From positions 1 through 64,000 of the forward strand of contig JAEOTZ010000058.1 of assembly GCA_016839585.1 (NCBI GenBank): a stretch of DNA of 64,000 nt, in the 5' to 3' direction. Below the pieces are notes generated by a model, which was not told the DNA's origin, made no database searches, and worked only from the letters and a program-made list of their open reading frames with translations. The translations under genes and the position numbers were made by a program. The stretch is from Promethearchaeota archaeon (lineage in GTDB: Archaea; Asgardarchaeota; Lokiarchaeia; Sigyniarchaeales; SOKP01). This document shows, piece after piece, positions 48,693 to 52,845 of this stretch. Within the stretch, counting starts at the first letter, position 1. Each line of letters begins with the position of its first letter.

Positions 48693-48852
48693 AAAATGTA
48701 TATCGAGTTACAAATTATATAAAAAAAAATGGTAGATTTTTAAAAAAAAAATACAATATTCAATAACATTTTATTAGAAAGGTTTTTCTTTAAAGAAATA
48801 TTTTCTTTATTGAAAAAGTGTGATAATACGATAAATGTAATTGTGAAATAAA

Positions 48853-50001
48853 CTGAAATTTGAAGATTTAGGTATTAATAAAAAAAATATTAGCGTTCTA
48901 AAAAGTTTAAATATAAACTCACCTACCCCTGTCCAGAATAAAGCAATTCCTTTAATTCTGAAGGGCCAAAATATTATGGCTCAGGCAAAGACGGGAAGTG
49001 GTAAGACTTTAGCATTTGTTCTTCCAATTTTTGAGCGCTTAGAAGGTATTAGAAATGAGGTACTTATTTTAGCACCCACAAGAGAACTTGCGAAACAAGT
49101 CAACCAAGTAATTAAAGATTTAGGGAATTCAATTATAAAGTCTATGACTATATATGGGGGTGTTTCAATTAATAATCAGATAAGAAAATTGGATCTGGGA
49201 GTTCACATAATAGTTGGTACACCTGGTCGAATTATCGATCTCTATAAAAGGAAGAACTTAAAATTTAATAATATAAGATTTGTTGTAGTTGATGAAGCTG
49301 ATAGATTGTTTGATATGGGATTTGCTCCTGATGTCAAATATATTTTAGATCAAATCAAAACCAACTACCAATTTCTACTATTTTCTGCGACGCTTCATAA
49401 TAATATTAGAGAATTAGTGAAGAAGTATTCTAAAAATAAATTTCAATTCATTAATTTAAGTAGAGATAATTTAACTGTAAGTAACACTAAACAATTTTAT
49501 TATTTGATTGATCGATTTGAAGAAAAATTTAAAACTTTCCTGAAGATATTAAGAAGAGAAAAACCAAAGCATACTTTAGTATTCGTTAATACAAAAAAAA
49601 CTGCAGATTGGCTAAATAGACGGTTAAAATCAACTCATAATTTTTATTATAAAGTGGATATTATTTCAGGAAATTTATCTCAACATCAACGAGAAAAAAT
49701 CTTAAATTCCTTTAGAAATCATAAAATTAATATGCTCATAGCTACAGATGTTGCCTCAAGAGGTTTGGATATTGAAAATATCTCACATGTAATAAATTAT
49801 GATGTTCCTAAATATCCAGACGTTTATGTTCATCGAATTGGGCGAACTTCACGAATGAATAAACGTGGTGTTGCTATTACATTATGTTTAAAAGATGAGT
49901 ATGAATATTTATGCCATATTGAAGGTCTAATTGATAAAGAAATTAGGCAAAAAACATTACAATATCAGGAACAAGAAAGATATCATAATCCTTTTTATTA
50001 A
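48853..50001 (+). CDS. DEAD-box RNA helicase, probable CTG start
   Basis: Q motif (KFEDLG...PTPVQ) lies upstream of the track ATG; AKTGSGKT, PTRELA, DEAD, SAT, HRIGRT; in-frame TGA at 48844. Confidence 0.9.
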   Translation: MKFEDLGINKKNISVLKSLNINSPTPVQNKAIPLILKGQNIMAQAKTGSGKTLAFVLPIFERLEGIRNEVLILAPTRELAKQVNQVIKDLGNSIIKSMTIYGGVSINNQIRKLDLGVHIIVGTPGRIIDLYKRKNLKFNNIRFVVVDEADRLFDMGFAPDVKYILDQIKTNYQFLLFSATLHNNIRELVKKYSKNKFQFINLSRDNLTVSNTKQFYYLIDRFEEKFKTFLKILRREKPKHTLVFVNTKKTADWLNRRLKSTHNFYYKVDIISGNLSQHQREKILNSFRNHKINMLIATDVASRGLDIENISHVINYDVPKYPDVYVHRIGRTSRMNKRGVAITLCLKDEYEYLCHIEGLIDKEIRQKTLQYQEQERYHNPFY

Positions 50002-50056
50002 AAACTAGCTTTAGCATGTAATATTTGGATATTAAAGCTAAATACATTTTTGAAAA

Positions 50057-50497
50057 ATGAGATTAAAAAGTTGGAGACCTATTATCTTAAAAGACTTCCG
50101 TTTGCGGGTAATAAGGGAGAATTTAAGAACTCTTATTAGCTTAGCTGTGGATGCAGAGATTAGTCGATTGAATGAAAAAGAAGATTTATACAGACAAAGA
50201 CGTATTAATCATAGACAGACTCCCTCTCAGTGGAGAAGGGAATTGTCTATTTATGATAAGAAGGAGAGCATTATGAAGACACTAAATAGCTCAATATTGA
50301 GATGCTCCGAAGGTTCGACTTGCAAATCTAGGGAGATAATGCCCTTAACTCAGGATATTTTGACTTTAGATAAAGATATGGTATGGAATCCTCTCCTTAG
50401 ACATTGGATCTGCATAAATTGTTATAATTTTTACTATAAATCAGAATCAGCGAAGAGAAGATTGGAGGAATTCCTTAAGCAAGATGATCTTCAATGA
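50057..50497 (+). CDS. Zn-finger hypothetical protein
   Basis: C...C...WICINCY. Confidence 0.65.
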   Translation: MRLKSWRPIILKDFRLRVIRENLRTLISLAVDAEISRLNEKEDLYRQRRINHRQTPSQWRRELSIYDKKESIMKTLNSSILRCSEGSTCKSREIMPLTQDILTLDKDMVWNPLLRHWICINCYNFYYKSESAKRRLEEFLKQDDLQ

Positions 50498-50654
50498 AAT
50501 TTATAATGAAAAAAACCAAAGTTTTTTGGAAAAGATATTTTTATATAAAATAAGTTTTATACTACTATTATTAGGTTTATGTTAAAAAATGGAAATAAAA
50601 AGTGGAAATTTAGTTATGAATCATTTAATTATAAAGCGAGGAGGTTGGTAAGAA

Positions 50655-51299
50655 GTGCCCTCACGTAGAGGAGATGGGACTCTCGTCTTTAAAATTTGTT
50701 TTTATGGACCTTCACTCGGAGGAAAGACAACCGCATTGGAATGGGTCTACAACAAGGAAGGACTTGCTTCAGGTGATTTTAGCTCTCGAATCGAGATTTA
50801 GTACCAGATGCAGCAAATCCAAGATCCTACCGGCAGAACCCTATTTTTTGATCGTGTTGTGGCTCGTGTGAGCAATGTTGTATTCCAAGTATACACCGTT
50901 GCTGGCCAGAGACGTCATAAATTTCAACGCCAAACGGTTTTGAAAGGCACAGACGCTTGTATATTTACATGGGATAGCTTAATAGATCAGTGGCAAGAGA
51001 ATGTGTGGTCTTTAAAGGAATTAATGAGATTCTATGGAGATAAACTAATTCCAACTGGACCTGCTGAACCCCCGGCTGTCCCGCTTGTTGTATTGGCTAA
51101 TAAACGTGATTTAGAGGATATTGTTGAGATAGCTAAAATACGTCAAGTATTTGATACAGCTAAATTAAATCATACACTTATTTATGAAACGATAGCCATC
51201 ACAGGGATAAATGTTAAAAGAGCTTTTGTATATGGAGCTCGACAAGCAGTACTTAATCACTACAAGAAATTATCAGGTAAGTCAATGGAAGCTGCTTAA
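50655..51299 (+). CDS. mglA: MglA-family small GTPase, split by a 30-nt insertion (join 50655-50777, 50808-51299; 204 aa)
   Basis: GGAGGT RBS; exon 1 has KICFYGPSLGGKTT (G1); exon 2 has GRTLFFD (G2), YTVAGQ (G3), NKRD (G4), ETIAITG (G5); both in the same frame. Confidence 0.9.
50778..50807 (+). other. putative bulge-helix-bulge (tRNA-endonuclease-type) mRNA intron
   Basis: TTTAGCTCTCGAATCGAGATTTAGTACCAG; in-frame TAG 50799; central helix GGUG/UACC flanked by 3-nt bulges AUU and AGA. Confidence 0.82.
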
Positions 51300-51339
51300 A
51301 GTTTACTAACTTATTTTTAAATTACTTGTTATTAGATTT

Positions 51340-51870
51340 TTATAAATAGATAATTTCGAAATTTACATCTTCCTTAGAGATTTTAAGAAATCCGTATGAA
51401 TTTATATCAGTAAATTTTTTATCGGTAGGAGTTCCAGGGCTTATGTATAATTTACCATCTCTCCACTTTTCATTATATGGATGGTGAACATGCCCAAAAA
51501 TAATAACATCATATTTAGATAAGTCAAAATATTTGTTCAATCGTTTAATGATAATATTTGGTCCTCCCATTCCATGAGTCATAAAAATTTTATGACCATA
51601 TAAATCAAATTCAATTTTTTCAGGTAAAATCTTTATCAATTTATAATCGTCCATATTCCCTCGAATTCCAATAACTTTATCTTTTCCAAAAGTCTCTAAT
51701 AGGTCATTATACACTTTAAATTTGGTAAAATCTCCTAAATGAAAAAGATAGTCAATATTTCTTTCTTTAAAATCATTGATTATAATTTTAGGAATTTCAA
51801 GACCTCTTGATGGGATATGAGTATCCCCAATTAGTCCAATAAGTAGCTCATCTTTTTCTGTTTTAATCAT
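51340..51870 (-). CDS. YfcE/Vps29-like metallophosphoesterase
   Basis: GDTH, HLGD, RGNMD, THG, FGHVH, SPGTP. Confidence 0.9.
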   Translation of the reverse strand: MIKTEKDELLIGLIGDTHIPSRGLEIPKIIINDFKERNIDYLFHLGDFTKFKVYNDLLETFGKDKVIGIRGNMDDYKLIKILPEKIEFDLYGHKIFMTHGMGGPNIIIKRLNKYFDLSKYDVIIFGHVHHPYNEKWRDGKLYISPGTPTDKKFTDINSYGFLKISKEDVNFEIIYL

Positions 51871-51912
51871 CGTAAGAACTTAAAAATGTTTTTCTGATTT
51901 ACCGAACCCGAT

Positions 51913-52845
51913 CTATTCTTCTTCTTTATTTTTTTCAACTTCTTTTATTCTAATTTTTATCACTCTGAGAGCGAAATTAATTACGTCATCCATATTACTC
52001 CATCTGCCTTCATCAAGCATTTCTTTAATCCAGTAATAGAGATCTTGTTCTATTGGAATAGTCATATAAATTGGTTTATATGTCTGTTCCTCTGTAGACT
52101 GTGCTTTATTTAATAACCAAGAAATCAAATTTGAGACTAATTTAAAATTATCTGCTGCATTGATACCATAGGATTGCTGTAAACTTGAAAATAAAGATAA
52201 ATTACCTAAAGCTACAACTTTTCCTAATCCAAAATGCGTGATACCAATCACAGGAATTTTTTGGACTGGTTCCTCAACCCAATCATTACCATCAAAATAT
52301 TTATGCCGTGACGATTCCTCAGAAGAAAATGCTATTGCTTTAACATCAATTTTCTCATTCTCAATAGATTTATCTATATTTAAAGTACAACCGCTTGAAT
52401 GAATTATTTCTGCTATTTCTTTTGTAATAAAATGTTTTTTAAAATCTTTAATAATTGGATGTGAGCTTTTTTTTGAAAAATTTTTATCATCAAATAACCT
52501 ATCAGAGTTAAAGGTTATGCCAAAATGTTTAGTAAGTTCTGATAAGTTATTTTTATTATCATAATCGCCACCTTTATCGTTTAATAATAAAAGGCTTCCG
52601 CCATCGTTAACATATTTAACTAATGCTTCAATCTCATCAGGATTAAGATTAGAATCTGTAGTAGGAACACCAATAATGAAGATATTATATTTATTCAATT
52701 TTTCATAGCTAATTCCGGCTTCAATTTTTCCAAGTTGAAAGTCAGAATTAAATAAGTATTGGATAAAATCAGTAAAGGTTTCATTTTCAATAACTAATTT
52801 ATTATTATGGGAATAATCAAATCCAATCGCTTTTTCATTCAACAT
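51913..52845 (-). CDS. GIFT/GldG(IFT52)-like class I GATase-fold domain + C-terminal ribbon-helix-helix
   Basis: FDYSHN, EIEALVKYVNDGGSLL, FGITF, GLGKVVALG, DNFKLVSNLISWL; GRWSNMDDVINFALR. Confidence 0.7.
   Translation of the reverse strand: MLNEKAIGFDYSHNNKLVIENETFTDFIQYLFNSDFQLGKIEAGISYEKLNKYNIFIIGVPTTDSNLNPDEIEALVKYVNDGGSLLLLNDKGGDYDNKNNLSELTKHFGITFNSDRLFDDKNFSKKSSHPIIKDFKKHFITKEIAEIIHSSGCTLNIDKSIENEKIDVKAIAFSSEESSRHKYFDGNDWVEEPVQKIPVIGITHFGLGKVVALGNLSLFSSLQQSYGINAADNFKLVSNLISWLLNKAQSTEEQTYKPIYMTIPIEQDLYYWIKEMLDEGRWSNMDDVINFALRVIKIRIKEVEKNKEEE

Follow-up and report, generated by a model that had tools for sequence, protein, structure and literature searches.

In archaeal pre-tRNAs, the canonical bulge-helix-bulge (BHB) motif has its helix at positions 32-35 and is cut at 37/38. 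Non-canonical BHB introns of archaeal pre-tRNAs were reportedly treated by Marck and Grosjean in 2003, and the cbf5 pre-mRNA intron is said to have been studied early on by Watanabe in 2002 and by Yoshinari in 2006. Asgard archaea possess heavily interrupted tRNA genes with non-canonical BHB introns (PMC11291895; bioRxiv 10.64898/2026.10.13.758758). The cbf5 intron of Crenarchaeota (Aeropyrum, Sulfolobales and Desulfurococcales) is also of BHB type and shows patchy gain and loss (Yokobori 2009, PMC2738675), and a 2025 paper on the tRNA-splicing endonuclease EndA (PMC12397907) cites only the crenarchaeal cbf5 studies for introns in protein genes. Protein-coding introns cut by this enzyme come down to essentially one gene, cbf5, in the searchable archaeal literature, and are very rare in archaea; the same searchable literature holds descriptions of BHB introns in Asgard tRNAs only, and none in Asgard mRNAs. 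Here we describe a 30-nucleotide (nt) insert at 50778-50807 of the window, i.e. the whole 64,000-nt stretch that was analysed (positions 1 to 64,000 of contig JAEOTZ010000058.1, our contig C47), from the 3.45-Mb, 99 % complete assembly GCA_016839585.1 of a Promethearchaeota archaeon (genome G000). This insert interrupts the coding sequence (CDS) of an MglA-type small GTPase and is very probably a mini-intron of hBHBh' build (outer helix h, two bulges around a central helix H, inner helix h'), cut by EndA, joined by RtcB and most likely removed constitutively.

The small-GTPase gene lies at 50655-51299 (+) and starts with GTG at 50655, coordinates that were confirmed base for base. A first open reading frame (ORF), 50655..50801, encodes 48 amino acids (aa) and is closed by TAG at 50799-801, and the same frame reopens at ATG 50808 as a 163-aa ORF. 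Excising 50778-50807 gives a 615-nt CDS for a 204-aa protein, with the junction ...EGLASGD/MQQIQDPTGR (a slash marks the junction here and below); the predicted spliced sequence is TCAGGTGAT/ATGCAGCAA and the peptide predicted across the junction is EGLASGDMQQIQDPTGR. The flanks and the insert fold into a full hBHBh' motif, with each bulge 3' of its helix strand, in the orientation seen in pre-tRNAs. The first-pass annotation of this stretch, made from the sequence alone, had described a P-loop half and a G2-G5 half in one frame parted by 30 nt with a TAG, the full BHB fold, and cuts after the second nucleotide of each bulge that would remove exactly 50778-50807. All of this was borne out: both ORFs are present, every pairing was found when helix pairs were counted by hand and by script, and the resulting junction equals that of about 40 intronless orthologs. 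A search of 50400-51400 against Rfam matched no family. The elements of the gene and of the motif are the following.

50640-50644 (+): Shine-Dalgarno-like GGAGG, read from the sequence, 10 nt upstream of the GTG start
50655-50777 (+): exon 1, 41 codons, with the P-loop GPSLGGKT and helix alpha1, ending in GGT GAT (Gly-Asp); register identical to intronless orthologs
50778-50807 (+): 30-nt predicted intron with in-frame TAG at 50799-50801; gap-free in source DNA contigs and in the contig of an independent study
50808-51299 (+): exon 2, 163 codons plus stop, with switch I RTLFFD, G3 TVAGQ and G4 NKRD
50760-50771 (+): outer helix h, 5' strand (exon 1), partner 50809-50820; 10/12 pairs
50772-50775 (+): central helix H, 5' strand GGUG (exon 1), partner 50802-50805; 4/4 pairs, one of them G.U
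50776-50778 (+): bulge 1, AUU; predicted 5' cut between 50777 and 50778, equal to the indel boundary with intronless orthologs
50779-50801 (+): inner helix h' and loop, UUAGCUCUCG-AAU-CGAGAUUUAG; 9/10 pairs, loop AAU
50802-50805 (+): central helix H, 3' strand UACC (intron)
50806-50808 (+): bulge 2, AGA; predicted 3' cut between 50807 and 50808, equal to the indel boundary
50809-50820 (+): outer helix h, 3' strand, in exon 2; the synonymous codon at 50811-13 is CAG rather than CAA

With the cbf5 intron this locus shares a BHB intron in a protein gene, a predicted hetero-oligomeric (alpha-beta)2 endonuclease and a patchy distribution among relatives. It differs in lineage (Asgard, Loki-type, versus Thermoproteota) and in host (an MglA-like GTPase versus a pseudouridine synthase), and its inserts have a uniform length of about 30 nt, with look-alikes at seven sites of one 615-nt gene and in other genes; moreover, splicing of cbf5 was shown experimentally, whereas here it is proposed from sequence comparison. 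Archaeal pre-tRNA introns have the same 4-bp helix, two 3-nt bulges 3' of the strands, cut after base 2 and, as predicted here, the same enzymes. Their host differs, as the GTPase intron sits in an mRNA, exposed to ribosomes, and the exon half of its motif must therefore be encoded within codons.

Among 54 genomes from the genus, an ortholog of the GTPase was found in 44, and about 40 copies run through without interruption. The intronless orthologs read ...EGLA[ST]GD/MQQIQDPTGRTLFFD, which is exactly the predicted junction, and a first ortholog set (17 from the same genus and 2 from the same order), all uninterrupted, read ...GD/MQQ.... The indel boundaries are thus the cut sites predicted from structure alone, and they cannot slide because the flanking bases differ. 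At boundaries fixed in this way by orthologs, a motif this good (H 4/4, inner helix at least 9/10, outer helix at least 3/4, L=30) is found at 9.3e-6 of genome positions. The closest relatives (G057 and the ENA contigs L051, L052 and L064, with 98-99 % protein identity) are intronless and keep the same protein; L062, with the intron, and L064, without it, are near-identical strains from neighbouring samples. In a 90 % protein cluster of 18 members drawn from NCBI, JGI, ENA and Logan, the distinct alleles number five at 163 aa and six at 204 aa. Proteins of 163 aa are annotated by gene callers in many assemblies.

Inserts of 30 nt at the same site were also found in G056 (97 % protein identity), G021 and G042, in the ENA/Logan metagenome contigs L059-L063 and in a contig of run X5, from another study, i.e. 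in at least eight independent assemblies and two clades. The X5 contig differs from the query by 25 substitutions and 0 gaps. In the gene tree, the carriers fall into these two clades, and G043, the sister of G000, is without insert at this site and has another one elsewhere. Between clades, insert sequences are 15/30 identical and the geometry is maintained: GGUG/UACC forms the central helix in one clade, where the other has GGCG/CGUU (U-A to C-G), and in the G000 clade G.U becomes A-U at two hairpin pairs, together with loop changes (G056, L062, X5). In an alignment of seven inserts, two of which had a boundary that could slide by 2 nt and was set by choice, pairing holds in 77 % of cells versus about 40 % when slid, and all four H pairs change on both sides. 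The covariation score of this alignment was 0.68, versus 0.15-0.26 when slid, and was reached by 0 of 500 shuffles. Aligning mglA orthologs for presence or absence and for compensatory changes had been suggested in the first-pass annotation, and with about 40 intronless copies, two carrier clades and a covarying central helix the outcome favours the intron.

Selection was assessed on the carriers themselves. Between G000 and G056, both interrupted, the synonymous divergence (dS) is 0.475 and the non-synonymous divergence (dN) 0.0245, so that dN/dS is 0.05, with low values for each of the two exons taken separately; in the X5 strain, 14 of the 14 listed exon differences are at third codon positions. 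The insert differs at 5/30 sites between G000 and G056, about half of the raw synonymous difference (~0.35). A dead gene would not behave thus, and the insert must therefore be neutralised before or during translation. Synonymous exon sites of the carriers strengthen the exon-exon helix and are visibly tuned: this helix has on average 9.4/12 pairs in 8 carriers versus 6.6/12 in 44 non-carriers (5/12 in G043, without insert at the site), and the synonymous CAG, whose G pairs with the C of an Ala codon, is used by 8/8 carriers versus 7/44 non-carriers, figures that are not phylogenetically independent given two carrier clades, with the effect present in both.

The enzymes that such an intron would need are encoded in G000. 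Two EndA paralogs of ~200 aa each carry PF02778 and PF01974 (N-terminal and catalytic domains); as read from the sequences, one keeps Tyr/His/Lys and the other is without His. The two, one alpha-like and one beta-like, are encoded in the regions C2:77426-77650 and C39:1832-2080. Asgard EndA is described as an (alpha-beta)2 enzyme with an L1 loop and a broad substrate range (PMC5829648), and the G000 pair would fit this type. RtcB is encoded in an uninterrupted frame at C7:4311-5618 (PF01139, E 2e-168). ARAGORN recognised only 18 tRNA genes in this 99 % complete genome, 11 of them with introns, one call having an 'intron' of 1376 nt. The program presumably misses most tRNA genes because of their many interruptions, and the few recognised, intron-rich genes agree with the strong interruption described for Asgard tRNA genes.

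In the pre-mRNA, exon 1 (50760-75) would pair with the last 4 paired bases of the intron and with exon 2 (50809-20), thereby placing a 3-nt bulge on either strand of a 4-bp helix. A two-subunit, (alpha-beta)2-like EndA would cut after the second base of each bulge, RtcB would join the exons and probably circularise the 30-mer, and the spliced mRNA would be translated into the normal 204-aa protein. Given the structure, the boundary match, the covariation, the purifying selection and the enzyme genes, it is hard to avoid that the insert would be cut out and its exons joined.

The insert has look-alikes. Across the genus, the same 615-nt gene is interrupted at seven sites by inserts that are 29-33 nt long and alike in build; the further ones are at CDS positions 38, 103, 133 (29 nt, frameshifting), 223 and 304 (33 nt), plus the P-loop (GG/K). 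Inserts at these six other positions were found in L043 (G042:C162), L042 (G052:C67), L027 (G043:C48), L044 (G057:C1) and L055-L058. The gene of G042 has three inserts at once and is otherwise perfect, that of G052 has two, one of 29 nt, and the P-loop insert is present in five contigs from four samples. Three BHB-shaped inserts were also identified in other genes of G000, including two in the phosphofructokinase (PFK) gene:

C52:9654-9683 (-): 30-nt insert in RNase HII, removal restoring DEAGR/GP
C62:43464-43494 (-): 31-nt insert in PFK, removal restoring TGGG/DCPGLN
C62:43149-43178 (-): 30-nt insert in PFK, removal restoring IGG/DDTLG

Thirteen inserts, including these three, stack gap-free on one scheme: a 4-bp H, a bulge A-N-N, a 10-nt arm, a 3-nt loop, the second arm, 4 nt that can pair with the upstream exon and a bulge A-N-A. 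The intron part of this scheme consists of one bulge base, a hairpin of 9-10 bp, the 4 complementary bases and A-N. MAFFT misaligned the 13 equal-length inserts, and pairs were counted by script on the ungapped stack, in which 79 % of cells are paired versus 33-44 % when slid, H being paired at 90 %. Both bulges begin with A in 13/13 inserts and the 3' exon opens with A in 12/13, so that the exon junctions read A-N/A. The canonical BHB definition does not require this, and it reflects a preference either of the enzyme or for certain target sites. Inserts at different sites are alike (G042 nt103 and G021 nt123 are 21/30 identical), and this likeness suggests that they may have spread from site to site. 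We consider it probable that the genus hosts a proliferating family of ~30-nt BHB mini-introns, located at A-N/A coding sites, with 4 nt complementary to the upstream exon and a fast turnover (seven sites in the 615-nt GTPase gene, up to three per allele, plus RNase HII, PFK and others). Taken with the carrier data, the comparisons show a GTPase intron that appears old, selected for its RNA shape and one of many.

A separate observation concerns G057, which holds two versions of the gene: G057:C27:44577-45065 is intronless and complete, and G057:C1:3-422 is a contig-end fragment with a 33-nt insert at CDS position 304. These could be due to a strain mixture in this metagenome-assembled genome or to a duplication.

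Several results weigh against the reading of 50778-50807 as a spliced intron. The carriers form only two clades, and carrier counts are therefore not independent. RNAfold recovered most of the structure with a z of only -1.86, and 9 of 200 shuffles folded equally well. Three genome scans tested BHB geometry together with the joining of ORFs and filtered by codon usage, with mirror-image geometry as control; BHB shapes proved no commoner than the control (35 vs 39 and 127 vs 135 loci), only the strictest setting giving 11 vs 1. A covariance model built on the seven inserts and run against the genome, with 150 of 2848 candidates scored, returned the query as the only significant match (E 3e-7, the next at E 0.9). 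BHB shape alone is thus weak evidence and does not identify introns in the AT-rich G000 genome, and the case rests on comparison with other sequences for this reason. A scan for BHB motifs at other in-frame stops had also been suggested in the first-pass annotation; the structure scans did not rise above the mirror control, and three further coding inserts were verified in G000. As for transcripts, the run search gave 19 DNA runs, among them X1-X4 from the source sediments, and one RNA run (X20), which contains the helicase transcript of a close relative and covers only 49222-49606, in the helicase gene and outside the GTPase; the spliced 35-nt junction had no exact match in the metagenome contig collection. 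The predicted spliced product has no identical protein in the databases, and the 204-aa members of the 90 % cluster differ from it by at least 3 residues and stem from intronless strains, on DNA contigs that hold several genes. Finally, coupled transcription-translation would require this BHB, which takes in 16 nt from exon 1 and 13 nt from exon 2, to form before ribosomes reach it.

Among other explanations, the one that survives best, though unlikely, is that splicing is regulated and gates GTPase output in the manner of HAC1/XBP1, as the first-pass annotation had proposed together with the intron. The intron was strongly supported by comparison, and the gating was not. Unspliced RNA would give only a 48-aa stub, and output must then depend on splicing efficiency; nothing further speaks for gating. 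HAC1/XBP1 splicing is also spliceosome-independent, with an endonuclease cutting the mRNA at two structured sites and RtcB joining the exons (metazoa). In that system, however, the nuclease is IRE1, the sites are twin 7-nt loops, and splicing is stress-regulated and frame-shifting, which leaves an analogy only; no twin stem-loops with 7-nt loops were found at this locus, whose structure is a BHB. The intron is also sporadic among near-identical strains: the closest relatives keep the same protein without it, and G043 lost it or never had it and carries its other insert elsewhere. Look-alike inserts occur in housekeeping genes (RNase HII, PFK), and neither a sensor nor a regulated nuclease came to light, no search having been aimed at IRE1. 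A neutral or selfish element that is removed constitutively fits better than gating: as the family is gained and lost quickly, at A-N/A sites of the GTPase gene and of further genes, the intron is most likely removed constitutively rather than serving as a regulatory switch.

It is very unlikely that the gene is a pseudogene, hit by a small hairpin element resembling a miniature inverted-repeat transposable element (MITE) that is never removed. An in-frame stop within a 30-nt hairpin insert would agree with this, as would the apparent mobility of the element family and the similarity of inserts at different sites (21/30). Against it stand the dN/dS of 0.05 at a dS of 0.48 between two carriers, in both exons, and the lack of any other lesion in any of the eight or more carriers. 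The insert was retained through speciation in two clades, synonymous exon sites are tuned to pair across it, and the G042 gene is otherwise perfect with three inserts.

Translational solutions, i.e. read-through of the stop codon or ribosomal bypass of the phage T4 gene 60 type, are still less probable. The length of 30 nt preserves the frame and the hairpin adjoins the take-off position, but sister inserts that are 29 and 31 nt long do not. Read-through is further opposed by stops that differ or multiply between carriers (TAG in G000, TAA in G056, TAG and TAA in G021) and by the 10 inserted codons, which are not conserved as protein; the first-pass annotation had named orthologs with a sense codon and a conserved 10-aa insert as the finding that would speak for this, and the carriers show the opposite. 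For bypass, the take-off codon would be GAT 50775-77, yet no in-frame GAT precedes 50808 and the nearby GAT at 50807-09 is out of frame; intron ends vary between carriers (CAG, TAA, AAT), and the conserved features are BHB base pairs, not bypass signals.

We regard as highly improbable a split gene, in which the 48-aa P-loop peptide and a 163-aa fragment from ATG 50808 are made apart and assemble. Exon 2 does start with ATG and 163-aa proteins are annotated in many assemblies, but all intronless orthologs conserve the Met of ATG 50808 within their chain, no Shine-Dalgarno sequence lies upstream of it, the other six insert sites are without following start codons, and a split gene does not need covariation in RNA pairing. 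An artefact of assembly, also raised in the first-pass annotation, or of sequencing, or a variant at the DNA level, found no support and has next to no chance of being true, as the source run contig spans the insert at a depth of about 37 with no differences and no 30-nt joint, the independent X5 contig carries it with 25 substitutions and 0 gaps, and carriers occur in NCBI, JGI, ENA and Logan assemblies. These five rivals (pseudogene, read-through, bypass, split gene, artefact) were all rejected on carrier comparison, frame, start-codon and assembly evidence.

If the proliferating mini-intron family is real, mRNA would be spliced routinely by tRNA machinery, with dynamics of intron gain and loss, in the closest prokaryotic relatives of eukaryotes. 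This raises the questions of how a prokaryote with coupled transcription-translation splices its mRNAs, how BHB introns reach new sites, and whether gene interruption and splicing by protein enzymes were already common in the archaeal lineage ancestral to eukaryotes. Interrupted genes would also be mis-annotated as truncated (the 163-aa entries in NCBI, JGI and ENA), and Asgard proteomes consequently under-called in a systematic way.

Regarding the host protein, the MglA assignment of the first-pass annotation holds: the best solved relatives of the intronless allele P0001 (99 % identical) are MglA, with E 3e-21. Pfam matches are Arf and Ras only, and database names vary (Arf-like, SR-beta). 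The translation shows a Ras-like G domain with Thr replacing Asp in G3 (TVAGQ) and switch I RTLFFD. The bacterial polarity GTPase MglA (PDB 5ymx, 6h17, 3t12) is collinear with it and has the RTLFFD switch I and the Thr in G3 (TVPGQ, versus TVAGQ here), although identity is only about 35 % and no MglB/Roadblock gene is adjacent here, in a search confined to the flanking genes. These encode a DEAD-box helicase, an ORF without family, a YfcE-type phosphoesterase and a GIFT-domain protein.

Downstream, at 51340-52845 (-), lie two genes that converge on the GTPase. One encodes a metallophosphoesterase of YfcE type (Vps29-like), the other a protein of 310 aa with a homolog listed under PF23355 IFT52_GIFT, and relatives (L062) retain the trio. 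Upstream, at 48838-48978, the listed ORF of the DEAD-box helicase begins only with ATG 48976, at motif I (AQAKTGSGKT). The conserved N-terminal part of the helicase (KFEDLGI...PTPVQ, Q motif) lies ahead of this ATG in the same frame, with no ATG, GTG or TTG after the preceding stop, which points either to an unusual start or to a further small interruption. Between helicase and GTPase, the 505 nt at 50005-50509, with an ORF at 50057-50497 (146 aa, no Pfam or NCBIfam family), are skipped in related contigs (joint 50004>50510, runs X5 and X6). The stretch is absent between the two genes in L051 and L064 and present upstream of the GTPase in the intron-bearing L062, and it looks like a strain-variable insertion of one gene.
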